From contig CAVUXI010000023.1 of the NCBI GenBank assembly GCA_963745385.1, positions 5,622 through 69,621 on the forward strand: a DNA stretch of 64,000 nucleotides, in the 5' to 3' direction. Both the position numbers and the translations under genes were made by a program. This stretch comes from an uncultured beta proteobacterium (lineage in GTDB: Bacteria; Pseudomonadota; Gammaproteobacteria; Burkholderiales; Casimicrobiaceae). The stretch's first letter is position 1, and each line of letters begins with the position of its first letter. The notes under the pieces are model-generated. The model saw only the letters and a list, made by a program, of their open reading frames with translations. It searched no databases and had not been told where the DNA came from. Below, in pieces: positions 18,308 through 52,210 of the stretch.

Positions 18308-18558
18308 TACGGCTCTGGACCTCGTTGGAAAGCACGTTCTACAGGCGAGCACCTACGGCCGCAACCGGTGGCGCAGTCCAAGTGATTTGCAAGGAATGTG
18401 CCAGCGAGGTCAACGCCTCCCTGCGAGCCAATGGAACGCCGCGAATCCCATGCTTCGATCGCGCATAGGCAGAAAGTGACGCGGCGGCGACGCAGCCCTA
18501 AGCCTTTCCGCCGTTGACGTGTCGCCACCGCTGGGACGTCATTGCCGCGAGTGGGTCG

Positions 18559-19733: not shown

Positions 19734-19783
19734 TGATGCTCCAGATGAAGATCCGAAGAACGAAGGATGGATGGAAGGGAACA

Positions 19784-20610
19784 CTATCGGCGAAGCGACG
19801 CTTTGCGGATCGCCTCGACGGTTTCGCGCGACGATCGCGTCGATCCCCAGCTGTCCCAGCTCCGCCGAGGCGCGGCGCGGATCGCCGTAGACGCCTTGCG
19901 CGCGCGTGGGGGCGGCCGTCGACTTGAGGAGATCCGTTCGTACCAAGCGCGGGTCGACGGCGAGGGTAAGCGCCGTGTCGGCGAGGCCGGCGTGCGTACC
20001 GATTTCCTCGTCGCGATAGCCGCGCGGCGAAGCGCATCCGCGTAGGATTTCTGCGTCGCGCCGTAGTATTCGACGATGGCATGCACGCGGACGGGCGTCG
20101 CTGCCCATTCGCGATTGAGTCGCTCCGCGACCGCGGATTCGTCTTTCTGGTAGCCGCCGTGATCGCCGAGAAAAACGATGTCGCGGAATCCGTGCAACTT
20201 GAAGCTTCGCGCCGCATATTCCAGAACGCTCTCGAATGTGGCGTCGGGCACGGTGATGGTGCCGGGAAAGCGCATATGCGCGCTGGGCGGATCGACGCTG
20301 CCTTCGGGAACGTAGGCGATGACCGGCGCGACCAGCGCGTTCGCCCAGCATGCGGGCGATCTTCTCCGCCAGCACCATGGCGCGCACGTTGTGCTTGCCG
20401 AGCGCCATATGCGGGCCGCTTTGCTCGGTTCCGCCTATCGGCACGATGACGATGGTCTTGCCGGCTCGGATCTGATCCGAGCTCGGTCCAGGTCAGGTCG
20501 TCGATCAGAACGGACGGTGGGACCTCCGCGCACACAGCCGCGCTCGTAAACAGCGTAAGCAGCAGGATCCGGATGGTCGCTCTCAGGATGGTCGCTCTCA
20601 TCGTGCGCAT
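19784..20610 (-). pseudogene. Creatininase (creatinine amidohydrolase) family protein, multiply frameshifted
   Basis: Family-like segments PIGGTEQSGPHMALGKHN, RFPGTITVP...FLGDHGGY and GTHAGLADTA are spread over three frames. Confidence 0.7.
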
Positions 20611-20749
20611 CTTAGGCGATCGATGCCGATCCCTACAAGCGAGTTACAAGCTTAGAACTCAAATTAGCCGCGATGATGCTGTAAAATCGCACGTTCGCCG
20701 GGCGCTGCTTGCGTCGCGCGCTCGACATTTCTCTTACCCGGATCGACCC

Positions 20750-21837
20750 ATGCGAGTGTTCAATTTCAGCGCCGGCCCCGCGGTGCTGCCCGAAGCCCGT
20801 GCTGCGGCAGGCCGCCGCCGAAATGCTGGACTGGCATGGCAGCGGCATGTCGGTCATGGAAATGAGCCATCGCGGCAAGGAATTCATCAGCATCGCGGAC
20901 AAGGCGCGAGGCCGACCTGCGTGCGTTGCTCGCGATTCCCGCCAACTACAAGGTCTTATTCCTGCAGGGCGGCGCGATCGCCGAAAACGCCATCGTTCCG
21001 ATGAACCTGCTCGAGGACAAAACGGTCGCGGACTACGTCAACACCGGCGAATGGTCGAAGAAGTCGATCAAGGAGGCGAAGAAATATTGCACGGTCAACA
21101 TTGCCGCATCGGCAGAAGACAAGCAGTTCACCTACGTTCCCGCCGCAGCGAGACTGGCAGCTGTCGCAAGGACGCGGCGTATGTGCACGTCTGCACCAAC
21201 GAGACGATCGGCGGCGTCGAATATCAATGGACGCCCGACACCGGCGACGTGCCGCTGGTTGCGGACATGTCGTCGCATATCCTTTCGCGCGTCGATCGAC
21301 GTCGCGAAGCTACGGCGTCATCTACGGCGGGGCGCAGAAGAACATCGGCCCCGCCGGGTCTGACGCTGGTGATCGTGCGCGATGATCTGCTCGACCGCGC
21401 GCTGCCCATCACGCCGTCGGCGTTCAAGTGGAAGGAGCAGGCCGAGGCCGACTCGATGCTCAATACGCCGCCGACCTATGCGATCTACGTCGCAGGCCTG
21501 GTGTTCGAGTGGCTCAAGGCGCAGGGCGGCATTGCCGCGATGGAGAAGCAGAATATCGCCAAGGCGGCGCTCGCTCTACGATTATCTCGACCGCTCGACG
21601 TTCTACTGCAATCCGGTGCGCAAGGAGGATCGCTCGCGAATGAACGTGCCGTTCCGCCTGCGCGACGAGTCGCTCGACGAAGCGTTTCTCAAGGGCGCCA
21701 AGGAGCGCGGCATGGTGCAGCTCAAAGGACACCGCGCGGTCGGCGGCATGCGCGCGTCGATCTACAACGCGATGCCCGTCGAGGGCGTCCGGGCGCTGGT
21801 CGACTACATGAGCGAATTCGAGAAGCGCCATGGCTGA
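20750..21837 (+). pseudogene. serC: Phosphoserine aminotransferase, multiply frameshifted
   Basis: [35 protein letters not shown] and ...[10 protein letters not shown] are recognisable but spread over all three forward frames (at least six shifts). Confidence 0.75.
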
Positions 21838-23027
21838 TACCAAATACCACATCCTGACCCTCAACCAGATCTCGAGCCAGGGCCTGCATCGCTTTCCCGG
21901 CCTCGCGCTACACCGTGGGCAAGACGGTCGATCATCCCGACGCGATCCTGGTGCGTTCGCACGACATGCTCGACATGGCGATTCCGCCGAGCGTCAAGGC
22001 GATCGGCCGCGCCGGAGCGGGCACGAACAACATTCCCGTTGCCGACATGTCGAAGCGCGGCGTGCCTGTGTTCAATGCGCCCGGCGCCAACGCCAATGCA
22101 GTGAAGGAGCTGGTCTTCACCGCGTTGCTGCTGGCGGCGCGCAACGTGATGCCCGCGCTCGGCTACGTCGCGGGGCTCAAGCGCGGAGGCTCGCGACCTG
22201 GAAAAGAGGGTCGAGGACGGCAAGAAGCAATTTGCCGGCGTCGAGCTGCCAAATCGCACGCTGGGAATCATCGGGCTCGGCGCCATCGGCAGCCTCGTCG
22301 CCGACACCGCGATCAAGCTCGGGATGAAGGTGATCGGCTTCGATCCGGAGATCACCGTCGACGCGGCGTGGCGCCTGCCGTCGAGCGTGCGCAAGGCCAA
22401 CAGCATCGAGGAGCTCCTCAAGCAATCGGATTTCGTCACGCTGCACGTGCCGCTTCTGGACGTGACGCGCCACCTGATCGACGAAAAGCGCCTCGCGCTG
22501 ATGAAGCCAGGCGCGGCGCTGCTCAACTTCGCGCGCGACGCGATCGTCGACGAGGACGCGATCGTCGCGGCGCTGCGCGCGCACGCTCAAGTACTACCTG
22601 TGCGATTTTCCGAGCGCCAAGCTGCATGCGGCGAGCCGCAGTGTCGCCGCGCTTCCGCACCTGGGCGCGTCGACCGAGGAAGCCGAGGAGAACTGCGCAG
22701 TGATGGTCGTCGACCAGGTGCGCGAGTATCTCGAGAACGGCGCGATCGCCAACGCGGTCAATTTCCCCAACGTCGACATGCCGCGCGAATCGCCGTACCG
22801 GGTCGCGATCGCCAATGCCAACGTTCCCAACATGCTGGGGCAGATTTCGACGAGCGATGGCGCGTGCCGGACTCAACATCCACAACATGGTCAACAAGTC
22901 GCGCGGCGAGATGGCGTACACGCTGGTCGACGTCGACAGCCCGATCCAGCCGCCGCTCATCGATGCGATCTCTGCGATCAAGGGCGTGCTGTCGGTGCGG
23001 GCGATTCCTGTGGAAGGCGCGGCGTGA
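21830..23027 (+). pseudogene. D-3-phosphoglycerate dehydrogenase-like 2-hydroxyacid dehydrogenase with C-terminal ACT domain, frameshifted
   Basis: The ATG overlaps the serC stop. GRAGAGTNNIP, GIIGLGAIGS, a C-terminal ACT-like segment and the end ...KGVLSVRAI are read across several frames. Confidence 0.7.
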
Positions 23028-31291: not shown

Positions 31292-31870
31292 CTACTTGCC
31301 GGCCGGCGGGAGCGTTTCGATGACCACCTGCTTACCGTTCTCGACCTTGACGAGGAAGCTCTCACGGTCGAGGTCGCCGTTGTTGTCGAAGCTGACATCG
31401 AGGAGAACGCCGGGATATTCTTTGACGGATATCTTGGCACCCTGCAGTGTCTTGGCGAATTCCTTCGAGTCGAACTTCTTGTCTTTCTCGGTAATGGCCT
31501 TGATTACCTATGCCGCGCTGTAGCCCTTCGTGTTGTGGTCGCTCTTGTACTTGTACTCCTTCTGGAACTTGTCGTCGAAGGCCTTGATAGCCGGCTGCGG
31601 CGGATCCGCCGTAAGGCCGACGTGCGCGACAGCGCCGTTGGCGGCGTCGCCTGCCAGCTCGATCACCTTTTGCCCGGTCAACGTCGTCTCGCCGATGATC
31701 GGCTTGTCATAGGCCTGCTTCTTCAATTCGCGCAGGCCGCGCGCCGATTCTTCCTCGTTCAGATAGACGAACAGGGCGTCGGTGTTGGTCTGCTTGGCCC
31801 GAAGCACCGCGCCGGAATAATCGACCTGGCCGGGATCGGCGGGATCGGCTGCTACCTGCACCGCAGGCAC
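31292..31870 (-). pseudogene. Remnant of a LivK-type substrate-binding protein gene: 5'-truncated, with an in-frame TAG
   Basis: Only the C-terminal ~190 codons are present. The TAG at 31508-31510 is in the same frame as the terminal stop at 31292-31294 (...GYSAA*VIKAITEK...). The upstream half is replaced by the end of the Gfo/Idh/MocA gene. Confidence 0.7.
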
Positions 31871-31879
31871 CAGATTCCG

Positions 31880-32906
<1,027 letters not shown>

Positions 32907-33028
32907 TGCGGCAGTCGCGAGGGAATCCGAGCATGATCGCGGCCTCGAAAATAGTACGCCGCACCCGCGACCTGCTCATGCGTCCAACAGATCTCGAATT
33001 TGTGCTGCAAATGCACAGCAATTTCAAT

Positions 33029-33604
33029 TCAGCGTAGCCACCAGTCTCCGGACACCATCTGCGCAACGCAGTCCTGAATGTGCGTGATCGTTGTCGCCTG
33101 AGCTGAGCGCCAATCACGTCCCAGCGCAAATGTCAGCAGCTTGCGGTGCTCCTCTGCGACTGGTTCTCCGCGAAAGACGGCCGCAAGCATGAGGTAGCGC
33201 AGATATTTGTCATAGATGCCCGCGTGCATGTCGAGAAGAACGCGCGAGCCGCAGGCGGAAATGAGTGCGTTGTGAAATTCCCAATCGTATCGCCGTAAGG
33301 TCTCCTCTTCAGACCGGTCTCCAGCGGCCATTCGCTTTTCCAATGACGCGAGCTTGTGGTGCGCCGCAACGACGCGTCCCTCCCATTCCACGTCGCCTGC
33401 CTCGAACGAGCTGCGCAGCGCGTCGCATTCGAGAAGCTGGCGCATGGCGGCGACCTCGCGCAGATTGTCGGGAGAGATCGATGCGACTTCGAAACCACGC
33501 GCGCCCTCCGCGGTGATGAGCCCTTCGGACGCAAGGCCGTTGAAGATTTCGCGCAAGGTGCTCACTGCCGAGCCATAGGCGTCTCTCATCCGATCCAGCG
33601 TCAA
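33029..33604 (-). CDS. GntR-family (FadR/FCD subfamily) transcriptional regulator, start uncertain
   Basis: The wHTH continues in frame upstream of the TTG at 33604 (...ETTYRRVRADIVYGRLAPGQKLTLDR...), but no ATG/GTG/TTG lies further upstream before the in-frame stop at ~33768. The C-terminus is an FCD-type helical domain. Confidence 0.65.
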   Translation of the reverse strand: MTLDRMRDAYGSAVSTLREIFNGLASEGLITAEGARGFEVASISPDNLREVAAMRQLLECDALRSSFEAGDVEWEGRVVAAHHKLASLEKRMAAGDRSEEETLRRYDWEFHNALISACGSRVLLDMHAGIYDKYLRYLMLAAVFRGEPVAEEHRKLLTFALGRDWRSAQATTITHIQDCVAQMVSGDWWLR

Positions 33605-33948
33605 TTTCTGGCCGGGCGCAAGGCGCCCGTAGACGATGTCGGCCCGGACGCGGCGGTAGGTCGTTTCGCCTACGGGCGTACTGGTCGGCCGCAGCGTCGC
33701 GCCGTCTTTGCGCCTGGCGAGCAGCCGCCAGTTCGCGCAGCTGTCCTGGGTGACTCGTCTGCGTCAATCTCGTGAGGCTGGATGGCGCATGTCGCATCTG
33801 GCACTTCTCCGACAATATCGATGATATTGATATTCTCCTATGAACATCATAATATCCGTCGCGAGCCGAAGATACACAACAATTGTCGGAACGGGCGACA
33901 GCTTCGTGGGTTCGCCTCGCTTCCGCGTAATCCAAAACGGAGGAGTTC

Positions 33949-34936
33949 ATGCAGACCAAGTTCACACGTCGTTCGCTGCTGGCGGCCGGTGCATCGATGC
34001 TGGCGCTCGGCGCGTTACCGCACGCCCGTGCGCAGGCACGGACCAAATTGCGTTTCAGCTCTGCGTTCACTGAACAGGATTTGCGCGCCGATGCATACAA
34101 GTCGTTTGCCACTGCGATCAAGGACGGCTACGACTTCGAGCCCTATTGGGGAAACACGCTGTTCAAGCAGGGCACCGAACTCATCGCCCTGCAGCGGGGC
34201 AACCTCGAAATGGTCAATCTCGCGCCCGCGGACATATCGAAGCAGATTCCCGCGTGGTCGCTGATGACTTCGGCTTATCTGTTTCGCGACGCAGCCCACC
34301 TGAAGAAGACGTTCAAGAGCGACGTCGGACGGGAGTTCATCAAGATGGCCCGCGACCAACTCGGTATCCAGATCATCACGCCCGTCTACTTCGGGTCGCG
34401 CAACGTCAATCTGAAGCCCGACCGCCAGATCAAGACCCCTGCGGACATGGCAGGAATCAAACTGCGGATGCCGCCTGGCGAGTTCTGGCAGTTTCTCGGG
34501 GAATCCATCGGCGCCAATCCGGTGCCGGTTGCGTACGCCGAGGTCTACACGGCGCTGCAGTCAGGCGCCATCGACGGCCAGGACAATCCGCTGGTCGCCA
34601 GCAAGCTCATGAAGTTCTACGAGGTAACGACTCAATTCGTCCTGACCGGCCACGTCATCGGGTACGACGTGATGACCATCAGCAGCAAGATCTGGGATGC
34701 AATGGCTGCCCGCCCAACAAGCGGCATTCCAGGCAGCCGCCGAGAAGGCGATCGACGACTACGTGGTGAAGTTCAGCGCGCAGGAAAAGGAGGTCCTCGA
34801 TTTCTTCAAGGCAGACGGCAAGAAGGTCTACACGCCCGACCTCAACGCGTTCCGCACGTTCGCCCAGAAGAAGTATCTCGACAAGTACGGCCAGGACTGG
34901 CCCAAGGGCGCGCTCGAACGGATCAACGCGCTGTAG
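33949..34936 (+). pseudogene. dctP: TRAP transporter substrate-binding protein (DctP family), single frameshift near 34709-34715
   Basis: Tat/Sec-like leader, DctP-type body. The C-terminal 75 aa continue in ORF 34697..34936. Removing one C from GCTGCCCGCCC restores ...WDAMAAAQQAAFQAAAEK... Confidence 0.75.
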
Positions 34937-35119
34937 CGAGACCGCAAGTATCACGTCTGGTGCTCAGCGTCGCCAGCCATTGCGCGCAATGGCTGGCTGA
35001 CTGGCCGCCGGTCGTCTGGACAGCTGCGTCTCCGCGCCGTCGATGGCCCCTAAGGACCCAACGATGTCGAGCAATTCGGTGAATCGCAAGCGGCATGGCT
35101 GAGAAGGCGGGCCGAGAAC

Positions 35120-35585
35120 GTGATCGTTGCGCTGATCGCGATCATGTTCGTCTCCTTCCTGCTGCAAATTGCCTTTCGCTATCTCCTGAACCGTCCGTTG
35201 GGCTGGACCGATGAAGTCACGGTCCTCTGCTGGGTGTGGCTGGTGCTATGGGGGGCGGCTTTCATATTGTCGGATCAAGGACGAGATCCGATTCGACATC
35301 GTCTACGGGCTTGTCTCCGAGCGAACTCGTCGTACGTTCACGGTGATTTCCAGCCTGGCATTGGTCGTTCTGTTCGTCGTCTCGCTGCCCGCTTCCTGGA
35401 ACTATGTGCTCTTCATGAAGCGTGAGAAGTCCGCCTATCTGGGAATGCGGTTCGACTATCTGTACTCCATCTACGTCATCTTTTCTGTCGCCTGCATCGT
35501 CAAGCACGCCTGGATCGCCTGGAACGCGTTTCGCGGCCGAGAATCGCCGGAGGTAGACGTGCTCGAAGATGGGGAGCGGATCTGA
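35120..35585 (+). pseudogene. dctQ: TRAP transporter small permease (DctQ family), frameshift near 35275
   Basis: The two overlapping ORFs 35120..35425 and 35211..35585 together give a DctQ-like 4-TM protein. The stop overlaps the dctM start (TGATG). Confidence 0.65.
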
Positions 35586-36883
35586 TGCCCAGCCATTTCA
35601 CGCTGTGCATCATTGTCTTGATCGCGCTCGCGTTGTTCGGGTTGCCGATCGGTCTGTCGATGATCTGCGCATCGGTGTTCTATCTCCTCGTGACCGGTCT
35701 CGACCTTGGAACCGCGGGCGAGCAGATTCTGAACGGTCTGTTCAACAGCTATGTTTTGTTGGCAGTACCGCTGTTCATCCTTGCCGCGGATTTGATGAAC
35801 AGCGGGAGCCTGACCGACCGACTTCTGAAATTCTGTCTTGTGCTCGTTGGTCGATTTCGCGGCGGGCTTGGTCACGTCAACGTTGTGGCGAACATCATCT
35901 TTGCGGGAATGTCGGGTTCAGCCATTGCAGACGCCGTCGGCATTGGCCGCATCATCATCGGAATGATGACGCGCAACGGAAAATATCCCATCGAGTATGC
36001 CGCGGCGATCACCGCATCGGCGGCCATCATCGGACCGATCATTCCACCGTCGATCCCGATGGTCGTGTATGCGCTGGTTTCCGACACTTCAATCGGCTAT
36101 CTCTTCCTTGGCGGAGTCATCCCGGGACTGTTGCTCGGTGTGGCGTTCATGATCATGAACACGCTGATAGCCCGTCGCAGGAATTATCCTGTTGAGCCGC
36201 CGGTCCCGATGCGAGAGATCCCGCGCATCACGCTGGATGCGTTTCCTGCCCTGATGCTGCCGGTCGTGCTGTTGTTTGGCATTTACGGCGGTGTTATGAC
36301 GCCGACTGAAGGCGCCGCTGCGGCGGCGGCGTACGCGCTATTGGCATCGGCTCTGATCTACCGGTCGATCTCGCTAAAGCAGTTGTACGCGGTCCTGCTC
36401 TCCAGCGCCAAGTCGACTACCTCGGTGGGCATGCTGATCGCCGGAGCATTGGTTTTCAACTACGTGGTTACGATCGAAAACGTTCCGCTTTCGGTACAAC
36501 ACTTCATCAGCGCCTTCCATCTAACTGCCATCGGGTATCTTCTTCTTGTCAACGCGATACTACTTGTCCTGGGGTGTCTGCTCGAAGGAACGACGATTCT
36601 CCTCGTCATCGTTCCAATCCTGATACCGACAGCCAAGGCACTGGGAATCGATCTCGTTCATTTCGGCGTCGTTGTTGTCGTCAATATCATGATCGGGCTT
36701 CTCACGCCTCCGTTCGGTCTGTTGCTCTTCGTCGTCGCGAACATGACCAAGAAGCCCCTGATGTCGATCGTCCGTGAGGCGACCCCATTCATTTTCGTTG
36801 CGATAGTTGTTCTTGCGATCATCACCCTCGTCCCACAAACAGTACTGTGGCTACCCAGAGTTATGGGATACAAGGGTAATTAA
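35585..36883 (+). CDS. dctM: TRAP transporter large permease (DctM family)
   Basis: Intact 432-aa polytopic ORF with typical DctM sequence. Confidence 0.9.
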   Translation: MPSHFTLCIIVLIALALFGLPIGLSMICASVFYLLVTGLDLGTAGEQILNGLFNSYVLLAVPLFILAADLMNSGSLTDRLLKFCLVLVGRFRGGLGHVNVVANIIFAGMSGSAIADAVGIGRIIIGMMTRNGKYPIEYAAAITASAAIIGPIIPPSIPMVVYALVSDTSIGYLFLGGVIPGLLLGVAFMIMNTLIARRRNYPVEPPVPMREIPRITLDAFPALMLPVVLLFGIYGGVMTPTEGAAAAAAYALLASALIYRSISLKQLYAVLLSSAKSTTSVGMLIAGALVFNYVVTIENVPLSVQHFISAFHLTAIGYLLLVNAILLVLGCLLEGTTILLVIVPILIPTAKALGIDLVHFGVVVVVNIMIGLLTPPFGLLLFVVANMTKKPLMSIVREATPFIFVAIVVLAIITLVPQTVLWLPRVMGYKGN

Positions 36884-36908
36884 CCCCCGCAAACTGGACT
36901 GCCTAATT

Positions 36909-37359
36909 ATGACAAGCACCAAAACCAATCTATGTCTTGAATGGGCCCAACCTCAATCGCCTGGGACGACGAGAACCGGATATTTACGGCAAGTGACGCT
37001 TGCGGAGATCGAGGTGCAATGCAGGAATGCAGCTGGCGGGCAGGCAATCGAGTTTCGGCAGACGAACAGTGAATCGCAACTGATCGATTGGATCCACGAG
37101 GCCATCGACCTTGGCAGTGGCATCATCATCAATCCGGCTGCTTACTCGTTTACGTCAATCGCGATCATCGATGCCCTTAAGATGTTCTCGGGGCCGATTG
37201 TCGAACTTCACATATCCAATATTCACAAGCGCGAGGACCATTACCACCACTCCTATGTCTCGAAAATCGCCACGGCAGTTATCGCCGGACTTGGGCGAGA
37301 GGGTTGCGGTGTGGTCGCGTGCCATTGTCGAGATGATCAAGCGTGATCCACAGTGCTAG
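36909..37359 (+). pseudogene. aroQ: Type II 3-dehydroquinate dehydratase, at least three frameshifts
   Basis: PIYVLNGPNLNRLGRREPDIYGK (frame 2), then ...FRQTNSESQLIDWIHEA...IIINPAAYSFTSIAI...ELHISNIHKRE (frame 1), with the C-terminal end in a third frame. Confidence 0.75.
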
Positions 37360-37368
37360 CTGGCGCGT

Positions 37369-38298
37369 TCACGCCGGCTGCGCTGCGCCGCCGGCGTCGA
37401 CCGGAGTGAGCAACATCCCGAGCTCGCTCGCCGCCGCGCGAAGCGCTGGAAGGAACTTCGCTTCCATTTCGGGGATCGAAACGCGCGCCGATTGAGTACC
37501 CACATTGATCGCCGCGATGCTGTGGCCGGTGGCGTCCTTGACCGGTACCGCGATCGAGCGCAACCCGAGCTCCAGCTCTTGATCGACCACCGCGTAATCC
37601 TGACGCCGAACCGCGGCGAGCACGCGCTTGAGCTCGCTTGCCGTCGACACCGTCCGATGGGTGAGCTTCACCAGACTCACGCGGGAAAGATACGCGTCGA
37701 GGTCCGTCGCCGCGAGGTCGGCAAGGAGCACGCGCCCCATCGACGAGCAGTACGCGGGAAGGCGGCTGCCGAGACCCAGATCGATCGACATAAGCCGTGT
37801 GGTGGTCGTCGAGCGCGCAACATAGAGGATCTCGTCGCCTTCGAGGACTGCCATGGAACTCGACTCGTGAAGGCGGTTGCTGATGGTGTCGAGGAGCGGC
37901 TGCGCCATTGTCGCGAGTGGCGTCGACGACAGATACGCATGACCCAGCGCCAGGACTTTCGGCCGCAGCGAATAGCCCCGCGATCCGTCCGAGCTTACGT
38001 AGCCGAGTTTTTCGAGCGTGTAGAGGCAGCGTCTGACCGCCGCGCGGGGCAGCGCGGTTCTTTGACTCAGCTGAGCGATCGTGAGGTGCCTGCGCTGCTG
38101 GCTGAACGCGCGGACGACGGCGATGCCCCGTGCGAGCGAGGTCATGAAGTTGGGATCGCCGGTAAGCGCGTCGATCTCCGAGGCAGGCGTGACGTGACGG
38201 GGATTCGAGGCGAGAATGTCGGGATCGGCGCGCTTCTTCGCGGCGCGGCTTGCAGTTCGTGCGCGGGAGGGTTCCGGTTTAGCCATGGGATCACGCAT
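37369..38298 (-). CDS. pcaR: IclR-family transcriptional regulator, PcaR/PcaU-like
   Basis: IclR wHTH (LTIAQLSQRTALPRAAVRRCLYTLEKLGYV) plus an effector domain. Divergent from pcaIJ. Confidence 0.8.
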   Translation of the reverse strand: MRDPMAKPEPSRARTASRAAKKRADPDILASNPRHVTPASEIDALTGDPNFMTSLARGIAVVRAFSQQRRHLTIAQLSQRTALPRAAVRRCLYTLEKLGYVSSDGSRGYSLRPKVLALGHAYLSSTPLATMAQPLLDTISNRLHESSSMAVLEGDEILYVARSTTTTRLMSIDLGLGSRLPAYCSSMGRVLLADLAATDLDAYLSRVSLVKLTHRTVSTASELKRVLAAVRRQDYAVVDQELELGLRSIAVPVKDATGHSIAAINVGTQSARVSIPEMEAKFLPALRAAASELGMLLTPVDAGGAAQPA

Positions 38299-39166: not shown

Positions 39167-39838
39167 GTGAGCGCCGTGGAAAGATTCAGCCGGGATCAGA
39201 TGGCAGCGCGCGTCGCTCGCGATATTCCCGAAGGGGCCTACGTGAACCTCGGCATCGGACTGCCGACCGCGGTAGCGAACCATCTCCCGCGCGACCGAGA
39301 GATCTTCCTGCACAGCGAGAACGGTTTGCTCGGCATGGGTCCCGCGCCCGCGCCGGGCCACGAGGATGCCGATCTCATCAACGCCGGCAAGCAGCCGGTG
39401 ACGCTGCTCACCGGCGGCGCGTATTTTCACCATGCCGACTCGTTTGCGATGATGCGCGGAGGCCACCTCGATTTTTGCGTCCTCGGCGCGTTCCAGGTTT
39501 CCACCGCCGGCGATCTCGCAAACTGGCATACGGGTGCGAAGGATGCGATCCCCGCGGTCGGCGGCGCGATGGATCTCGCGATCGGCGCCAAGCGCGTGTT
39601 CGTCATGATGGAGCATCAGACCAAGAGCGGAGCCTCCAAGATCGTCGAGCGCTGCACTTACCCTTTGACCGGGGTCGGCTGCGTCAACCGCATCTACACC
39701 GACCTTGCCGTCATCGACGTCACGCGCGATGGCTTGAGCGTGATCGAGACCGTCGAAGGACTCTCGTTCGAAGAGCTGCAGCGGATCACCGGCGTTCCAC
39801 TCATCCGCGGCGAGTCTGCTTCGGTGAGGGCGCACTAG
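39167..39838 (+). CDS. pcaJ: 3-oxoadipate CoA-transferase subunit B
   Basis: LHSENGLLGMGP (catalytic Glu motif). The stop TAG is formed at the MITE-A junction. Confidence 0.85.
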   Translation: MSAVERFSRDQMAARVARDIPEGAYVNLGIGLPTAVANHLPRDREIFLHSENGLLGMGPAPAPGHEDADLINAGKQPVTLLTGGAYFHHADSFAMMRGGHLDFCVLGAFQVSTAGDLANWHTGAKDAIPAVGGAMDLAIGAKRVFVMMEHQTKSGASKIVERCTYPLTGVGCVNRIYTDLAVIDVTRDGLSVIETVEGLSFEELQRITGVPLIRGESASVRAH

Positions 39839-39999
39839 TGGACTGTAACAATCAAATAGCTAGCGTCTCGCTTGCCCTCGCCGGCCGCAGCGTTGTTGCT
39901 CGTCGTCACCATAGTGTTGACTATGCTTCCTCCTCGCGCCTAGCTGCAACCGACGATCGCTGCGCGATACTGGCTGCTGATTCAACTGTTACAGCCCAC
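39838..39999 (+). mobile_element. MITE-A copy 3, between pcaJ and pcaF
   Basis: One difference from copy 1 by eye. TA at 39836-39837 and 40000-40001. Confidence 0.85.
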
Positions 40000-43424: not shown

Positions 43425-43816
43425 ATGGACGAGCGGGATCGCTACGAAAAGGGCATGACTGTGCGCCGCGCGGTGCTGGGCGATGCGCACGTCGATCGAA
43501 CGCTTGCGCGCAAGAATCGCCTTCAACGAGGAGTTCCAGGATCTGATCACGCGCTACGCGTGGGGCGAGATCTGGACCCGCCCGGGGCTGACCGCGCCAT
43601 ACGCGGAGCCTGATCACCGTCGCGATGATGATCGCGCTGAATCGCGCCGACGAGTTCCGGCTGCATGTGCGCGCGGCATTCAACAACGGCGTCACCCGCG
43701 ACGAGATCAAGGAAGTGCTGCTGCAGGCCGCGATCTATTGCGGCGTTCCCGCCGCGAACAATGCATTCCATCTCGCCGAGGAAGTGTTCGCCGCAGATGG
43801 ACCAGCGCCGCGCTGA
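43425..43816 (+). pseudogene. pcaC: 4-carboxymuconolactone decarboxylase, two frameshifts
   Basis: MDERDRYEKGM...VLGDAHVDR, then FNEEFQDLITRYAWGEIWTRPGL, then MMIALNRADEF...LLQAAIYCGVPAANNAF, each in a different frame. Confidence 0.75.
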
Positions 43817-43845
43817 CGCTAGCGGATCGGAACCCGCGATGCAGC

Positions 43846-45045
43846 ATGCGCACTCAGGTCGGCGATCGTCGGCGCCGGGCCGGCCGGGCTGCTGCTGTCG
43901 CATCTGCTGCACCTGCGAGGGCATCGAATCGGTCGTGCTCGAGACTCGCAGCCGCGACTATGTCGAGCAGCGGGTGCGCGCCGGCGTGCTCGAACAGGGG
44001 ACGGTCGACCTGCTCGAACGAGTCGGGCGTCGGCGAGCGGCATGAAGCGCGAAGGCCTGGTCCATCACGGCATCGAGCTGCGCTTCGGCGGCCGCGGCCA
44101 TCGCATCGACATGACCGAGCTGACCGGCGGCCGCGTCGATCACCGTCTACGGGCAGCAGGAAGTCGTCAAGGATCTGATTCGCGCGCGCGGCTCGACGCC
44201 GGCGGGCAGATCGTGTTCGGCGTCGAGCGACGTGCGCGTTGCACGACATCGACACCGAGCACGCCGCGCATGTCTCGTTTCGCGACGGCGGCGAAGCGTC
44301 GAGCTCGATGTGCGACATCATCGCCGGCTGCGACGGCTTCCACGGCGTCTGCCGGCCGTCGATTCCCGCGCGGCGCGCTGCGCGAGCTTCGAGCGCACGT
44401 ATCCGTTCGCGTGGCTCGGCATCCTGGCCGAGGCGCCGCCGACGCACGACGAGCTGATCTACGCCTACCACGAGCGCGGCTTCGCGCTCTACAGCATGCG
44501 CTCGCCGGAAATCACGCGGCTCTACCTCCAGGTGGCGCCCGAGGAAGACATCGGCGACTGGCCCGACGATCGCATCTGGGAGGAGCTGCACACGCGGCTC
44601 GAGACCGACGACGGCTGGACGCTGCGCGAGGGCACGGTGCATCGAAAAAGGCATCACCGGCATGCGCAGCTTCGTCGTCGAGCCGATGCAGTATCGGGCG
44701 GCTTGTTCCTGGCCGGCGACGCGGCGCACATCGTGCCGCCCGACCGGCGCCAAGGGCATGAATCTCGCGGTCGCCGACGTGCGCGTCCTGGCGCGCGCGT
44801 CGACGTGCGTTCTTCAAGTCGGGAAAGACGCGAGCTGCTCGACGCTTACTCGGAGACCTGCCTGCAAGCGCGTCTGGCGCGCCGAGCATTTTTCGTGGTG
44901 GATGACGTCGATGCTGCATCGCTTTCCCGAGCGACGACGAGTTCCAGCACCGGCTGCAGCGCTCGCAGCTCGAATACGTCGTCGAGCTCGCGGCGCCGCG
45001 GCGACGTCGCTCGCGGAAAATTACGTGGGTCTACCGTTCGAATGA
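43846..45045 (+). pseudogene. pobA: 4-hydroxybenzoate 3-monooxygenase, many frameshifts
   Basis: VAIVGAGPAGLLLSHLL, CDGFHGV, YPFAWLGILAEAPP and GDAAHIVPPTGAKGMNLA can only be read by repeated frame changes. Confidence 0.75.
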
Positions 45046-45176
45046 GCTGTACAGCGAATGAGCCGTATCGCGCAGCGATCGTCGGTGCAGCTCGCGAGGG
45101 CATGCGATACTATGGGTGACGACGAGCAACGCTGCGCGGCAGGCAACGAGACGCTAGCTATTTGATTGACAGTCGA
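45043..45176 (-). mobile_element. MITE-A copy 4, inverted orientation, degenerate (~80% identity with internal deletions)
   Basis: Aligns over its full length to the reverse complement of copies 1-3 (...CGAGACGCTAGCTATTTGATTG-ACAGTC). Overlaps the pobA stop codon. Confidence 0.55.
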
Positions 45177-45237
45177 AGACATGAAACATTGCAGACCGAA
45201 ATCGAAACGTTGATCGAGAAGTCGCATTCGAGCACAG

Positions 45238-46401
45238 ATGAAAAGTACGCTGGCGGGATGGCATTGCTGGCGGCGACGGGCTCGCGCAGGCGCAGGGCGT
45301 CGATCAAGCTGGGTATGGTCGCCGAGTTCTCCGGCCCGTTCGCGCAATACGGCCAGCAGATGCTAGGGCGGCATGAAGGCGTACATGAAGCAGCACGGCG
45401 ACACGCGTCGCCGGCAAGAAGATCGAGATCGTGCAAAAGGACACGACCGGCCCGCGCCCGATGTCGCCAAGCGGCTCGCGCAGGAGCTCGTCACGCGCGA
45501 CAACGTCGACATCCTGGTCGGCTTCGGGCTCACGCCGAATGCGCTGGCGGTCGCGCCGGTCGCGACCGAGGCGAAGAAGCCGATGATCATCATGAACGCC
45601 GCGACGTCGATCATCACCACCAAGTCGCCCTACATCGTCGCGCGTGTCGATGACGCTGCCGCAGATCACGCAGCCGATGGCGCGCTGGGCCGCGAAGAAC
45701 GGCATCAAGAAGGTCTACACGGTCGTCGCCGACTACGGCCCCGGGCTCGACGCCGAAGCGGCGTTCAGCAAGGCGTTCAAGGCGGCCGGCGGCGAGATGG
45801 TCGGCAGCGTGCACACGCCGCTGCAGAATCCGGACTTCGCGCCCGTTCATCCAGCGCGTCAAGGACGCCAAGCCCGAAGCGGTGTTCCTGTTCCTGCCGG
45901 CGGGCGAGCAGGGCATCGCCTTCATGAAGGGTTACAAGGAGCGCGGACTGGCCGAAGCCGGCATCAAGCTGATCGCCACCGGCGACATCACCGACGACGG
46001 CGTGCTCGAAGCGATGGGCGACCCGACGCTCGGGTCTGATCACCAGCTTCCACTATTCGGCGGCGCACGATTCGCCGGAGAACAACGCGTTCAAGAAAGC
46101 GTACGCCGACGCCAACGGCACCAAGCTGCGCCCCAATTTCATGGCGGCGGCGGGCTACGACGGCATGGCGGCGATCTACGAGGCGCTGAAGAAGACCGGC
46201 GGCTCGACCGACGGCGACAAGCTCATGGCGGCGTTCAAGGGAATGAAGATCGCAAGCCCGCGCGGCCCGATCATGATCGATCCGGAGACGCGCGATGTCG
46301 TGCAGACGGTGTACATCCGCAAGGTCGAAAAGACGGGCGGCGGCCTGTACAACGTCGAGTTCGACAAGTTCCCGGACCAGAAGGATCCGGGCAAGACCTG
46401 A
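45238..46401 (+). pseudogene. LivK-type ABC substrate-binding protein, many frameshifts
   Basis: IKLGMVAEFSGPFAQYGQQ, ILVGFGLTPNALAVAPVATEAKKPMIIMNAAT and ...YIRKVEKTGGGLYNVEFDKFPDQKDPGKT are spread over all three frames. Confidence 0.7.
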
Positions 46402-46473
46402 GCCGGTCGCCAACGGGCGGCGAATGCCAACGCGAGGCAATCGCGGCGAGTGACGTCGTGCGCTGAGGTTCGC

Positions 46474-47599
46474 TTACGCGCCGCCCCACACTTCCTGCGC
46501 CGTCTCGACGACCAGGCGCAGCTTCGCCGCCTGCGCCTCGCGCGCGATCTCGTTGCCGTGGACCGTGCTCGAAAACCCGCATTGCGGCGACAGGCAGAGC
46601 TGATCGAGCGGCACGCAGCTTGCGCCGCCTCGTCGATTTTGCGCTTGAGCGCGTCCTTCGATTCGAGCTCGCCGAGCTTGGTGGTGACCAGCCCGAGCAC
46701 GACGGTCTTGCCCTGGCGGGACGAAGCGCAGCGGCGAGAAGTCGCCCGAGCGGGCGTCGTCGTATTCGAGGAAATAGCCGTCGACCTGCAATTCGTTGAA
46801 CAGCACCTCGGCCACCGGCTCGTAGCCGCCTTCGGCGACCCAGGCGCTCTTGAAGTTGCCGCGGCACAGGTGGATGCAGACCGTCATTCCCGGCGGCCGA
46901 TCGGCGATGGCCGCATTGATCAGGCGCGCGTAGCGGCGCGGCAGCTCGTTCGGGATCGTCGCCGCGCTGCCGCGCGCCTTCGCGCATCTTTTCGTCGCAC
47001 AGGTAGGCGAGGTTGGTGTCGTCGAGCTGCAGATAGCGGCAGCCGGCGTCGCCAAGCGCGCGTATCTCGTCGCGGTACGCCGCCGCCACGTCGGCAAAGA
47101 AAATCTCGAGGTCGGGATAGGCCTCGCGGCTGATCGCCTCGCGGCCGCCGCGAAAATGCAGCATGGTCGGCGACGGAATGGTGACCTTCGGCGTGCGCCG
47201 GGTCACCGACTGCAGGAACTTGAAATCGTCGACCTGGATCGGCTTCGACGTGCCGCACCGGCGCGGTGACGCGCATGACCGGCGGCGCGAAATCGACGTT
47301 GCCTGCCGCGCTGTGAAAGCTGACCGCAATGCCGCCCTTGGTTTCGACGCCGGCGAGCTGCTCGAGGAAGTCGATGTGAAAATAGGTGCGGCGAAATTCG
47401 CCGTCGGTGATCCCGCGCAGACCGAGATCCTCCTGCAGGCGGACGACGTCGCGAATCGCGGCGTCTTCGACGTCGCGCAGCTGGCCGCGCGTCGATCTCG
47501 CCCGTTGCGCGCTCGCTCGCGGGCTTCGAGCAATGCGGCCGGGCGCAGGAAGCTGCCGACGTGATCGGCGCGAAATGGCGGGTTCTTGCGTGCTGACAT
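46474..47599 (-). pseudogene. Cobalamin-independent methionine synthase (MetE C-terminal-like) family protein, frameshifted
   Basis: N-terminus PPFRADHVGSFLRP, central ...CIHLCRGNFKSAW and C-terminus ...PQCGFSSTVHGN are split over at least three frames. Confidence 0.7.
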
Positions 47600-47617
47600 G
47601 AGAACGCTTTCAAGAAT

Positions 47618-47658
47618 AGCGAGCGAGGACGCTCATTCAAAACCGAGCCTCGCTCGCT
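47618..47658. promoter_or_regulatory. 11-bp perfect inverted repeat in a divergent intergenic region (candidate operator or hairpin)
   Basis: AGCGAGCGAGG (47618-47628) and CCTCGCTCGCT (47648-47658), separated by 19 nt, between the MetE-like gene and the LivK-type SBP gene. Confidence 0.35.
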
Positions 47659-47685
47659 TGTCAAGAAAACAACCGGAGGATGCAA

Positions 47686-48882
47686 ATGGACAAGATCCCT
47701 TCCCGTAGCCGCAGACGCTTCGTGGCGGGCGTTGCCGCCAGCGCGGTCGCCGTGGCGTGGGCGCCTCGATACGCGCTTGCGGCGGACCCGCTCAAGATCG
47801 GGCTGATTCTTCCGCTTACCGGGCCGTTCGCGTCGACCGGGCGGCAGGTCGAAGCGGCGTGCAGACTTTACATGGCGCGTAACGGCGATTCGGCCGCCGG
47901 CCGCAAGGTCGAGCTTATCGTCAAGGACGACACCGGGCTCGCCCCCGAAACGACCAAGCGCATTGCGCAGGACATGATCGTGCAGGACCACGTTGCCGTG
48001 ATCGCCGGCTTCGGCCTGACGCCGCTGGCGCTCGCCACGGCGCCCGTGGCGACCGAAGCGCAGTATGCCGATGATCGTCATGGCGGCCGCGACATCGATC
48101 ATCCCGCAACGCTCGCCCTTTATCGTCCGCTCGGGGTTCGCGCTGCCGCAGATCACGGCGCCCATCGCCGACTGGGCAGGCAAAGAACAAGATCAAGACC
48201 GTGATCACGCTGGTCACCGACTACGCACCGGGCCTCGACGCGGAGAAGACGTTCGTCAAGCGATTCACCGACGGCGGCGGCAGCGTGCGTCGAATCGCTG
48301 CGCACTCCGCTGCGCAGCCCCGATTACGCGCCGTTCCTGCAGCGCATCAAGGACGCCAAGCCGGAAGCGTTGTTCGTTTTCGTGCCCTCGGGCGAGGGGA
48401 CTGCGGTGCTCAAGCAGTTCGCGGAACGCGGCCTGCGCGAAGCGGGCATCAGCCTGATCTGCACCGGGCGACGTGCTCGACGACGATCTGCTGGATACCA
48501 TCGGTGCAGCCTGCGCTTGGCGTCGTGAGCTCGCACCATTACTCGGCCGCGCATCCTTCGCCGGAGAACAAGGCCTATGTCGAGGGCTTTCATGAAAGCC
48601 AACGGCGGCATGCGTCCGAATTTTCATTCCGTCGGCGGCTACGACGGCATGCATCTGATCTACGAGGCCGTCAAGAAAACCGGAGGCACGGGCGATGGCG
48701 AAGCTCTGGTGGCGGCGATGAAGGGCATGGCGTGGACCAGCCCGAGAGGCCCGATGTCGATCGACGCCGCAACGCGCGACGTGATCCAGAACGTCTACAT
48801 ACGCAAAGTCGAAGCGCGCGATGGCCATTACTGGAACATCGAGTTCGACAAGATCGACAACGTGAAAGACCCCGGCGCGTGA
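47686..48882 (+). pseudogene. Second LivK-type ABC substrate-binding protein (Tat-like leader), frameshifted
   Basis: SRRRFVAGV leader. LKIGLILPLTGPFASTGRQ, PMIVMAAATSII and the C-terminus ...YIRKVEARDGHYWNIEFDKIDNVKDPGA are spread over several frames. GGAGG lies 6 nt before the ATG at 47686. Confidence 0.7.
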
Positions 48883-48904
48883 CGAACGCGCAGAAGCTCG
48901 AATA

Positions 48905-49790
48905 ATGCTTGGCAATCTCCTCGGCGTTCTGTTCGACGGCGTCGCCTACGGCAGCCTGCTGTTCATCATCAGCATCGGCTTGTCGGTGACGATGGGCCTG
49001 ATGAACTTCGTCAATCTCGCCCACGGCGCGTTTGCGATGCTGGGCGGCTACGCGTGCGTGATCGTCATGACGCCGGCTTGGCGTGCCGTTCCTCGCGTCG
49101 CTGCCGATCGCGTTCGCTGGTGAGCGCCGCCGCGGGCGTCGTGCTCGAGCGCACTGCTGTACCGCCGCCTGTATCGCGCGACGCATCTCGATCAGGTGCT
49201 GTTCAGCATCGGGCTCGTTTTCATGTCGATTGCCGGCGCGACGTATTTTTTCGGCTCGCAGCAGCAGCCGGTGCAGCTGCCGGAGTTCCTCCGCGGCCAG
49301 GTCCATGTGCTCGGCCTGGATCTCGGGTCGTATCGCCTGTTCCTGATCGCGGTCGTGGTCGTCGATCACGCTGGCGCTGACGTGGCTGATCGAGCGCACG
49401 CGCTTCGGCGCGGAGATACGCGCGTCGGTCGACAACCAGCAGGCGGCCGCGGGGCTGGGCATCAACGTCTACCGGGTCTTCAGCCTGACCTTCGCGCTCG
49501 GCTCGGGTCTCGCCGGGCTGGGCGGCGGGCTGGGCATCGACGTGCTCGGTCTGGACCCGACGTTTCCGCTCAAATACATGGTGTATTTCCTGCTCGTCGT
49601 CGCGGTGGGCGGCGCGGGCACGATCAAGGGGCCGCTTTTCGCGGCGCTGCTCCTCGGCGTATTCGATGTTGCCGGAAAATATTACGTGCCGCAGATCGGA
49701 TCGTTCGTGATCTATGTCGTGATGGTCGTGATGCTGCTGTCTGTTCCGCGCGGACTCGTGGGCGACGTGCGTGAGGACGGCGCGCAGTGA
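48905..49790 (+). pseudogene. livH: LivH-type ABC permease, frameshifted
   Basis: N-terminus ...MNFVNLAHGAFAMLGGY and C-terminus ...YFLLVVAVGGAGTIKGPL lie in different frames. Confidence 0.7.
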
Positions 49791-50760
49791 ACGGGCGCTT
49801 CCGACGCGCGCGATGGAGCCTGTACGAGATCGGCTTCTGGCTGCTGCCGGTGATTGCATTCTTTCGTGTTTCCCAAGTACCTGACGCTGGGCAGCCAGAT
49901 TCTCATCGCCGGCCTCTTCGCGCTGTCGCTCGATTTGATCCTCGGGCTATGCGCGGATCATCTCTCTCGGCCATGCAGCCTTCTTCGGCGTCGGCGCATA
50001 CACCGCGGGACTGCTTGCCAAGTACGGATGGGACGAGCCGCTGAGCGGTCTGGCTGGCCGCCGCGCTTGCGGCGCGGCCTGGTCGGACTGCTCACCAGCT
50101 TCCTGGTCGTTCGCGGACAGGATCTGACGCGCCTGATGGTGACGCTGGGCATCGGCCTGATGCTTTTCGAGGCGGCGAACAAGGCGTCATCGATCACCGG
50201 CGGCGTCGACGGGCTCTCCGGCGTCGATATGGGCAAGATCTTCGGCGTGTTCTCGTTCGGCATGGACGGCAGGACCGCGTACGTATACTGCCTCGTCGTC
50301 TTGTTCGTCGTATTTCTGTTTGCGCGCACGCTGGTGCGCTCGCCGTTCGGCCTGAGCTTGCGCGGCATCCGTGAGGGCGAGCGGCGCATGCCCGCGATCG
50401 GCGTGTCGGTCCCGAGCGCAAGCTGATCGCGATTTATACCGTCGGTGCCGCCATCGCCGGCATTGCGGGTGCGCTGCTCGCGCAGACGACGCAGTTCGTC
50501 GGCATCGATTCGCTCGGGTTTCCGCGCTCCGCGGAGCTGATGATCATGCTCGTGCTCGGAGGCACCGGATACCTGTACGGAGCGCTGATCGGCGCGGCGG
50601 TGTTCATGCTTCTGCAGGACGTATCTTGTCGAACCTCAACGCCGTGTACTGGCAATTCTGGCTCGGGCTGCTCTTGATCATCATCGTCCTGTTCGCGCGA
50701 GGCGGCCTGATGGGCGGCATCATCGCGCTTAAGAATACGTGGAAAGGAAAGGCACGATGA
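49787..50760 (+). pseudogene. livM: LivM-type ABC permease, frameshifted
   Basis: GTGA overlap with the upstream gene. LivM-like TM segments are distributed over ORFs 49854..50426 and 50371..50760. Confidence 0.65.
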
Positions 50761-51515
50761 CCGTTGCGCTGCGAACCGTCGGGCTTTCGAAGTCGTTCGG
50801 CGCGTTCAAGGCCAACTCCGACATCACCTTGTCGTTCGACGTCGGGCGCGCGCCACGCGCTCATCGGCCCCAATGGCGCGGGCAAGACAACGTTCATCAA
50901 TCTGCTGACCGGAGCGCTGACGCCCAGCGCGGGCGAGGTATTCCTGGGCGAGGAGAGAGTAACGTCACTTGCCGCAGCATTTGCGAGTCAAGGCGCGGCA
51001 TGACGCGCACGTTTCAGATCAACACGCTGTTTCCCGGGGTTGACCGTGCTGGAGTCGGTGACGCTCGCGTGCTGCGAGCGCGACGGCGAGGGATCGATAT
51101 GGTGGCGCACAGTGTCGGCGGCGCGGCGGCAGATCGACGAAGCGCTGAAGATTCTCGCGTTTGCTGCGGCTCGAGCCGGACGCTGCCGTCGAGACGCGCA
51201 ACCTCCCCTACGGCAAGCAGCGTCTGCTGGAGATCGCGCTTGCGCTCGCGACGCGACCCAAGGTGCTGCTGCTCGACGAGCCCGCGGCGGGGATTCCGTC
51301 CGCGGAAAGCGCCGAGCTTTTCAGCGTCATCGCGAGCTTGCCCAAGGACGTGTCGCATCGTCTTCATCGAGCACGATATGAATCTCGTGTTCAAGTTCGC
51401 GGAAAAGATAACGGTGCTCGTGGGCGGCGCGGTCCTGGTCGAAGGAACGCCCGAGGAAATCGCGCGCGACCGGCGGGTGCGCGAGGTCTACCTGGGCGAG
51501 GCGGAGCATGCCTGA
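50757..51515 (+). pseudogene. livG: LivG-type ABC ATPase, frameshifted
   Basis: Walker A GPNGAGKTT (ORF 50764..51003), signature/Walker B LLLDEPAAG (ORF 51161..) and the C-terminus (ORF 50739..51515) lie in different frames. Confidence 0.7.
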
Positions 51516-52210
51516 GCTGCTGACCGCGGCAGGATTGACGGCGGGCTACGGCGACTCGATCGTGCTCGAGGATGTCTCGCTTCGAGATCGCGGAAGGCGG
51601 CAGCCTGGCGTTGCTCGGCCGCAACGGCGTAGGCAAGACGACGCTGCTGCTGACGCTGATGGGGCTCACCCGCCTGAAGCGGGGAAGCATCGTATGGCGC
51701 GGCTCCGATATCACGCGGCTGCCGACATTCCGCCGCGCGCACGCCGGTCTGGGATGGGTGCCGCAGGAACGTTTCATGTTTCCTTCGCTGACGGTCGAGG
51801 AGCATCTCACCGTGGTGGCAAGGCCCGGTGCTTGGGACCTGAACCGCGTCTACCGCATTTTTCCGCGGCTCGAGGAGAGGAAGCGCAACCTGGGCAACCA
51901 ATTGTCCGGCGGCGAGCAGCAGATGGTCGCGATCGCCCGGGCATTGATGACCAACCCCAAGCTGCTTCTGCTCGACGAGCCGATGGAGGGGCTGGCGCCG
52001 ATCATCGTGCAGGAGCTGATGAAAGTCATCGGCGAGCTCGTGCGGGTCGGAGATTTCGCGGTCATCGTCGTCGAGCAGCATGCCCGGCTTGCGCTCGAGC
52101 TCACGGAAACAGCGATCGTGCTCGATCGAGGACGGATTGTCCATCGCGCAGCCAGCGAGGAGCTGCTCGCCGATCCGGCAACGCTCGATCGGCTGGTCGC
52201 GGTCGCTTGA
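51508..52210 (+). pseudogene. livF: LivF-type ABC ATPase, one frameshift near 51575
   Basis: MPELLTAAGLTAGYGDSIVLEDVS (frame 1) then FEIAEGGSLALLGRNGVGKTT...LSGGEQQM...LLLLDEP (frame 2, otherwise intact). Confidence 0.75.

Follow-up and report, generated by a model that had tools for sequence, protein, structure and literature searches.

The window analyzed here, a 64,000-nt stretch of a contig from an uncultured beta proteobacterium, encodes the protocatechuate branch of the beta-ketoadipate pathway (pcaIJ-F-HG-D-C), pobA and an adjacent ABC transporter of the HAAT family, in the same content and order as an intact relative. This relative (L081) is a syntenic short-read contig, 93-96% identical to the window, in which every gene is intact; it served as the reference for a nucleotide alignment of window positions 37394-58905. 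The contig of a second, independent intact relative (L082) was used as a further check on insertions. The gene set of L081 consists of pcaC (CMD), pobA (FAD_binding_3), a substrate-binding protein (SBP, Peripla_BP_6), a MetE-like gene on the minus strand (Meth_synt_2), a second SBP, two permeases and two ATPases, and the gene identities proposed for the window in an earlier note on its sequence agree with these domains. Two L081 proteins exceed the equivalog cut-offs of NCBIfam, namely the PcaC orthologue (TIGR02425, score 194 against a cut-off of 155.7) and the PobA orthologue (TIGR02360, score 560 against 538.7); the read-through products of the window are 96% (PcaC) and 90% (PobA) identical to them. 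In the same NCBIfam search the transporter components do not reach the cut-offs of the Urt and Liv families, and the profiles assign no substrate. The exact PcaD protein is present on a 1.6-kb Logan contig of run ERR12037363, and a search with the 49-residue PcaC fragment of the Logan contig found no exact or near-exact copy.

The genes from pcaC to livF carry extra bases relative to L081. The per-gene event counts given here take in every insertion within the range of a gene, including a few of more than 2 nt. The first affected gene, pcaC (4-carboxymuconolactone decarboxylase, 43425..43822, plus strand, 5 insertion events), contains the start of the block, with extra bases at 43519 (the first), 43594, 43794 and 43806; without them, its product is identical to that of L081 at 125 of 130 residues. 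The adjacent pobA (4-hydroxybenzoate 3-monooxygenase, 43839..45045, plus strand) has 23 insertion events, for which the earlier note had counted at least 8 shifts, and the pobA region (43.5-45.05 kb) is the densest part of the block with 17 insertion events per kb. The pobA stop codon is followed by a degenerate copy of the MITE of this window (45048..45206), of which 103 + 15 nt are absent from L081. SBP1 (Peripla_BP_6, 45236..46401, plus strand) has 6 extra bases, and it lacks one base, at 45454. The MetE-like gene (Meth_synt_2, NF005085, 46474..47599, minus strand) has 6 insertion events, and its 3' spacer (46409-46472) contains three further extra bases. SBP2 (47680..48882, plus strand) has 6 extra bases, at 48062, 48185, 48287, 48464, 48506 and 48588. 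The livH-like and livM-like permeases (BPD_transp_2, 48905..50760, plus strand) share 12 insertion events, 5 in livH and 7 in livM, including 2-nt insertions at 50416 and 50622. The livG-like ATPase (50757..51515, plus strand) has 6 extra bases, and the livF-like ATPase (51508..52210, plus strand) has one at 51579, which ends the block and is the single shift already described near the start of that gene.

In total, alignment to L081 reveals 66 insertions of 1-2 nt (61 single-base, 5 two-base) between window positions 43519 and 51579, corresponding to 8.2 insertions per kb over 8.06 kb. The block begins 94 nt into pcaC and ends 72 nt into livF. Over the 13.4 kb of flanks (37.4-43.4 kb and 51.6-58.9 kb), small insertions number only six. 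Four fall within intergenic spacers or at their edges and the other two at 37403 (end of iclR) and 54281 (end of the large S53 gene), such that flanking coding sequence is virtually free of insertions (about 0). The block of shifted genes described in the earlier note is therefore real and more pronounced than stated, and its abrupt limits near 43.45 and 51.6 kb are borne out; the statement that everything is clean again past 51.6 kb holds for nearly all of the sequence, the one base at 54281 being the exception. Frameshift-aware protein-to-DNA alignment to other relatives agrees with the alignment to L081, and a reference-free Viterbi scan based on codon usage places clusters of frame switches only at about 19-25, 33.7-35.6 and 43.6-51.6 kb. 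At the second of these clusters the window is no longer syntenic with L083, the stretch of the L081 contig that lies upstream. Base composition does not change across the edges of the block. The share of window k-mers found in public runs is halved inside the block (0.16 vs 0.33-0.39 in the flanks).

The extra bases are absent from closely related DNA. All window insertions in 46.4-51.6 kb are also missing from the independent contig L082, and inserted-base polymorphism was not seen among close relatives. All nine insertion events (11 extra bases) that are covered by short-read contigs of 97-100% identity, drawn from three public runs, lack the base in these contigs. Runs X8, X23 and X38 yield short-read contigs that agree with the window flank at 0 mismatches, and an X23 contig over 45374-45498 equals the window except for indels at 45404 and 45454. 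Within 47.6-51.6 kb, all spanning short-read contigs are without the extra base at 48062, 48185, 50416/17, 50622/23, 50843, 50992 and 51033; more distant contigs are without it at 44693, 44705, 44738, 45404, 45640 and 46711. For the divergent first half of the block, the nearest relative that a search could find reached 96% protein identity.

The block retains a signal of purifying selection. Once the extra bases are dropped, its products are 90-97% identical to those of L081, and the share of mismatches at third codon positions (0.65-0.82) resembles that of the flanks. The block genes have no in-frame internal stops, bar one counted in livM that sits in the loosely aligned livH/livM junction with a 17-nt insertion. 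The indels are nearly all +1, with insertions outnumbering deletions by about 10 to 1, and 56 of the 66 events lie outside homopolymers, where chance placement would put about 55% next to an identical base. The codon phase of the insertions is random (22/17/19), and intergenic spacers and the minus-strand gene are struck as often as other parts. The insertion sites share no motif, their sole context bias being a C beside an inserted G.

A second lineage is represented by L084 (ENA ERZ25039556, contig_71919), a Flye-style contig that is about 15% divergent and that we use as a proxy for a second population. In 43.5-47.6 kb the distance between the window and its close relatives is about double that of the flanks, and the window sequence is drawn toward this lineage. 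The share of L084 alleles at informative sites is 6-8% in the flanks, 48% in pobA, 45% in SBP1, 32% in the MetE-like gene, 24% in livH, 15% in livM and 10% in livG. The two types of allele are finely interleaved: pobA comprises 77 allele runs, compared to 90 +- 7 expected if each allele were chosen independently, and the runs average 16 nt. Alleles private to the window are very few in the block (28 vs 85 and 93). The extra bases themselves follow the second lineage. Of 41 testable extra bases, 29 equal the L084 allele at an adjacent site where L084 differs from L081, compared to a null expectation of 11.6% (binomial P = 1.5e-18); the extra base that ends the block in livF is such a doublet. 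For 10 of another 11 insertions, L084 has the identical base in the aligned column, and 12 of 52 insertions (about a quarter) are unrelated to any L084 allele. Across the same cluster, L084 itself has 70 '+1' and 8 '-1' shifts and 1 stop. Its shifts also fall in genes that are intact in the window, and the positions shared by both number 4, against 3.0 by chance. An intact L084-like pobA was sought in metagenome contigs, with nothing nearer than 82%. The SBP2 gene is missing from L084, yet SBP2 of the window has 6 extra bases, without added substitutions and at a substitution level that matches the flanks. We note that the doublet relation emerged only with the more distant L084 as second parent. 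A variant of this model based on strain-level SNPs, with retention of both alleles, was ruled out, since L082 almost never has the inserted base beside the site and the codon phase is random.

A consensus drawn from a mixed population would be expected to show an intermediate sequence, fine alternation of alleles, few private alleles, and extra bases that repeat the alternative allele of a neighboring site, and each of these is found in the block. We conclude, at a probability of about 0.86, that the block at 43.5-51.6 kb is a consensus artifact of a mixed-population metagenome assembly, probably a long-read assembly, and not a real feature. The consensus for about 43.5-51.6 kb would have been built from pooled reads of two related populations, the L081-like lineage of the window itself and the about 15% divergent population represented by L084. 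Wherever these populations carry different alleles, the consensus would either take one of them, giving rise to a fine mosaic, or write both alleles in tandem, giving rise to a one-base insertion. The about 70 extra bases thus most likely arose when the consensus merged reads of two related soil bacteria; that the mixing took place at read mapping or polishing is deduced, as is the sequencing technology. The true genes would be whole (pcaC, pobA, two binding proteins, the MetE-like gene and a four-gene ABC transporter), and the living organism almost certainly has all ten genes at 43.5-51.6 kb in intact form. The MITE copy after pobA is a genuine sequence difference that lies outside the artifact.

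The earlier note had offered several origins for the block. A differently processed segment of the assembly is favored, because the extra bases are absent from L081, L082 and near-identical short-read contigs and most of them are tandem alleles of two lineages. Repeat-induced mis-mapping through liv paralogues within the window is not supported, as repeats of >=85% identity are absent from the block and its edges; the only repeats that touch the block are SBP1/SBP2 (70%) and the degenerate MITE, none of them at an edge. A recombined or acquired tract would account for the divergence of 43.5-47.6 kb and its pull toward the second lineage, but the alleles switch about every 16 nt, which fits a blended consensus rather than a real imported tract. 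Taken alone, interleaved alleles could also reflect a real allele of intermediate ancestry; what favors the blend is the presence of doublets together with the scarcity of private alleles.

Real loss of function, with the strain having recently shed the pcaC-pobA-transporter genes by accumulated frameshifts, is very improbable. The extra bases do stand in the deposited sequence and the region does vary between strains, but hardly any deletions accompany the about 70 insertions, nonsense codons and larger lesions are absent, selection has not relaxed, every tested insertion is missing from near-identical genomes, intergenic DNA is equally affected, and mutation offers no explanation for foreign-allele doublets. 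Mutation in bacteria is, moreover, biased toward deletion. Gene decay is thus not supported, given the lack of in-frame stops, the retained third-position bias of substitutions, the predominance of +1 indels and the near-identical contigs without the extra bases. It is even harder to believe that the extra bases exist in the DNA of the living population. They would then record a burst of template-independent one-base insertions, limited to an 8-kb tract that had also undergone patchy conversion by DNA of a related species and was sampled before selection purged it; one conceivable route is error-prone repair after the tract had formed a heteroduplex with donor DNA of about 15% divergence. The chance that the cell actually has these bases and copes with them, by +1 ribosomal frameshifting or by removing them from the RNA, is close to negligible: the motif, fixed phase and conservation in relatives expected of programmed +1 frameshifting or recoding are not seen in the block, some sites lie in spacers, and the sites are missing from near-identical strains and overlap with L084 positions no more than by chance.

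An artifact without mixing, in which few reads or a polisher skip left raw-read insertion errors in the block, is unlikely, though it has several observations on its side: the sharp kilobase-scale limits, the patchy blocks elsewhere in the window, the extra bases of SBP2 without extra substitutions, and the 12 of 52 insertions unrelated to L084 alleles. A near-finished long-read consensus, furthermore, needs about 40x coverage (PMC9262707). Raw long-read errors, however, include deletions and substitutions and favor homopolymers, whereas the block has almost no deletions, avoids homopolymers and has substitutions biased to the third position; the 71% doublets and the pull toward L084 would also be left unexplained. 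The blended consensus remains the preferred reading, and the block should be read as intact genes for 4-hydroxybenzoate/protocatechuate catabolism and an ABC transporter, not as pseudogenes or a lost pathway. Blending across populations leaves a recognizable footprint, namely kilobase patches of +1 shifts that avoid homopolymers, a raised mosaic divergence, and extra bases equal to the neighbor-site allele of a relative. A simple screen for this footprint could flag such patches before pseudogene counts swell or protein catalogs suffer.

Compared to known protocatechuate/pobA/HAAT clusters, the gene set of the window shows nothing unusual. In pseudogene tracts of reductive evolution, such as those of Mycobacterium leprae and recent symbionts, deletions and larger lesions occur alongside nonsense codons, and selection is relaxed. 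Like these, the window has many neighboring genes with broken frames; unlike these, its block is without the mixed lesions or larger events, and selection is not relaxed. A second known system are the gene-fragmenting indel errors of long-read (meta)genome assemblies, which are the target of the IDEEL test, proovframe (bioRxiv 10.1101/2021.08.23.457338) and Kastor (PMC12007338); indels remain below about 40x coverage (Sereika et al. 2022, PMC9262707). As with such errors, the one-base indels of the window split conserved genes, are patchy and are absent from short-read data. Classic Nanopore errors affect the length of homopolymer runs in both directions, a pattern not found in the block, whose indels are almost only insertions, avoid homopolymers and are mostly tandem copies of two alleles. 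In the papers that we consulted, we found no description of frameshifting allele doublets as a visible footprint. A third known system is the chimeric consensus of collapsed strains or species, a problem addressed by Strainberry (PMC8302730). The likeness lies in reads of related populations being placed on one backbone, with a mosaic consensus that equals no real genome; the difference to strain collapse is that the second population of the window, being about 15% divergent, would be a different species rather than a strain.

The earlier note described a block of frameshifted genes from pcaC to livF (block C), downstream of the intact genes pcaI to pcaD. Several analyses of the window, together with related public contigs and public sequencing runs, confirm this block. 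Three-frame translation yields recognisable PcaC, PobA, binding-protein and transporter peptides that jump between frames, and the phase with the highest third-position G+C, constant in the flanks, switches many times in 43.4-51.6 kb. A purpose-written protein-to-DNA aligner permitting frameshifts counts about 20 shifts in pobA and 12-14 in the permease pair, along with 9 in the MetE-like gene on the minus strand and 6 in the second substrate-binding protein gene (SBP2); almost every one is '+1' (one extra base). The same alignments show no in-frame stops in the block genes, and no shifts beyond ordinary gene junctions in the flanking genes. A codon-usage Viterbi scan, run over the whole window without a reference, places clusters of frame switches only at ~19-25 kb (block A), 33.7-35.6 kb (block B) and 43.6-51.6 kb, where 15 of 18, 3 of 5 and 23 of 33 junctions, respectively, are phase +1. 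Block C thus has two counterparts elsewhere in the window.

The read-through SBP2 protein used as a query retrieves a protein of 96% identity, encoded on a JGI contig of 27.9 kb. Its locus there, L081, from a short-read contig 93-96% identical to the window, keeps synteny with the window from iclR through the large S53 protease gene, with all genes whole. In a global alignment of window 37394-58905 with L081, the segment 43519-51579 holds 61 one-base and 5 two-base insertions; seven one-base gaps run in the opposite direction, two of them between pcaD and pcaC and three within the opening 45 nt of the first substrate-binding protein gene (SBP1), a loosely aligned stretch. Across 13.4 kb of flanks there are only six small insertions, the majority in spacers. 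Insertions number 17 per kb in 43.5-45.05 kb and fall to 5-7 per kb beyond it. Every insertion of 46.4-51.6 kb is also missing from L082, a second independent contig spanning the MetE-like gene to livF. The block genes are an ordinary pcaC-pobA-ABC transporter set.

The comparisons also reveal further differences. Where the two permease genes meet, the window carries a 17-nt insertion (49791-49807) that L081 and L082 both lack and whose length is not divisible by three; the second permease may truly differ at its start, or this may be a further consensus error. Downstream of the block, the sole coding insertion relative to L081 is an extra T at 54281, close to the 3' end of the 4.7-kb gene for the S53 protease. 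Between pcaJ and pcaF the window carries a 164-nt element (39833-39996), missing in L081, that is an 80% match to the MITE copies located in the window at ~3.2 kb and ~16 kb. Upstream of iclR, the L081 contig has SBP-aroQ-iclR2 directly adjoining (L083, 10889-13000). The window has ~5.6 kb of other genes in their place (31796-37394, the block B region), and the aroQ and second iclR of this relative have no BLAST match in the window.

The lesions do not resemble those of a decaying locus. When the extra bases are disregarded, no gene has an internal stop, the sole counted stop (livM) falling in the loosely aligned livH/livM junction. Third codon positions hold 65-82% of the mismatches to L081, as in the flanks, and the block proteins are 90-97% identical to those of L081. 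Extra bases are equally frequent in spacers, the minus-strand gene and plus-strand genes, occupy all three codon phases (22/17/19), and avoid homopolymers: 56 of the 66 insertions lie outside them, where ~55% of random insertions would be expected to touch an identical base. The inserted base is G in 30 cases, C in 19, A in 6 and T in 6, and C usually flanks an inserted G. Recoding or +1 frameshifting is contradicted, since the sites share no motif, their codon phase is random, some lie in spacers, and they are not conserved.

A k-mer comparison of block and flanks, as the earlier note suggested, separates the two: the best public runs contain a share of 0.33-0.39 of the window 31-mers from the flanks, but of only 0.16 of those from the block. 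Three short-read runs (X8, X23 and X38) contain a near-identical strain at a depth of 2-5x, whose contigs show 0 mismatches to the window pcaD. This strain is 6-9% apart from the window in 43.5-47.6 kb and identical again from 47624. In 47.6-51.6 kb, all contigs that cross an insertion lack the extra base, at 48062, 48185, 50416/17, 50622/23, 50843, 50992 and 51033, and the entire depth backs the shorter form. Within SBP1, a 125-nt short-read contig equals the window but for the indels at 45404 and 45454, and more distant contigs lack the bases at 44693, 44705, 44738, 45404, 45640 and 46711. As biology, a gain of ~70 insertions by a near-identical strain with no other change is not believable. 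The real degraded tract considered in the earlier note is contradicted by lesion spectrum, selection and near-identical strains without the extra bases. Further right, the contigs of the three runs differ from the window by 0-1% at 50.5-51.5 kb and by 1.5-2% at 51.9-52.4 kb.

The substitutions point to a second population, for which L084 (ENA ERZ25039556, contig_71919, 126 kb), a related contig of a lineage ~15% divergent, serves as a proxy. At third positions the window diverges from L081 by 9% in the flanks, by 20% in pobA, SBP1 and the MetE-like gene, and by 10% from SBP2 to livG. In the flanks L084 is equidistant from the window and L081 (e.g. pcaF, 82.1% and 82.5%); in the block the window is closer to L084 than L081 is (pobA 91.4% vs 84.8%, SBP1 92.2% vs 86.1%), a pull that wanes toward livF. 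Of the informative sites in the flanks, the window accordingly has the L084 allele at 6-8%, compared with 48% in pobA, 45% in SBP1, 32% in the MetE-like gene, 24% in livH, 15% in livM and 10% in livG. An acquired or recombined tract, also proposed earlier, fits poorly with the fine grain of this mosaic: alleles alternate nearly independently in pobA (77 runs vs 90 +- 7 expected, mean run 16 nt), and private alleles of the window are few there (28 vs 85 and 93), as would be the appearance of a mixture and not of a real third lineage or recombination tract. Repeat-induced mis-mapping, also raised earlier, is not supported within the window.

Decisive for a blended consensus is the doublet test: in 29 of 41 testable insertions the extra base is the L084 allele at an adjacent site where L084 and L081 differ (null 11.6%; binomial P 1.5e-18), and in 10 of 11 further cases L084 holds the same base in the column. 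The consensus thus has both alleles written in tandem. Such tandem writing accounts together for errors that are insertions only, that avoid homopolymers, that are G/C-rich with C beside G (C-G differences being the commonest variants in these high-GC genomes), and that are densest at the highest foreign-allele share. Together, the data point to block C as a blended, insertion-ridden consensus, and the earlier suggestion of a differently processed assembly segment was right. The L084 alleles leave about a quarter of the extra bases unexplained, and SBP2 has six extra bases and no added substitutions, though the gene is missing from L084; therefore either the second population resembles L084 without being L084 itself, or part of the errors arose in another way, e.g. 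through low depth. An abrupt left edge (~43.5 kb) combined with a gradual fade toward the right suggests cross-mapped reads with a common start, and at the right edge one strain background may also give way to another.

Over this cluster of genes L084 itself has 70 '+1' vs 8 '-1' shifts and one stop; its damage extends to pcaI through pcaD, a stretch that the window has intact. Shift positions coincide in 4 cases vs 3.0 by chance; the damage tracks the assembly rather than the locus. The ~78 frameshifts of L084 (70 of them +1) occupy 5153-18368, from pcaI to a lipid A acyltransferase gene, and look like the same artefact in another deposited assembly. Block A (19084-23014) is homologous to L084 5-3996, directly upstream of the L084 pca cluster, with 86.9% identity in 20737-23014, above the 78-82% of clean genes; it may be another blend of this kind, involving the same second population. 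The name contig_71919 is Flye-style. Most relatives from the family that public genome collections contain are soil MAGs built from long reads by Flye assembly and one Medaka polish (PMC12313526), a pipeline that is not necessarily that of the window, and near-finished long-read consensus requires ~40x coverage (PMC9262707). We note that long public contigs often seem to carry a truncated pcaC: on ENA/NCBI contigs of 40 kb-3 Mb there are many PcaC fragments with 39-86 residues, compared to a full length of ~129 (P0262, P0269, P0271, P0277, P0281, P0284, P0285, P0287 and P0304), a hint of how widespread such frameshift errors are.
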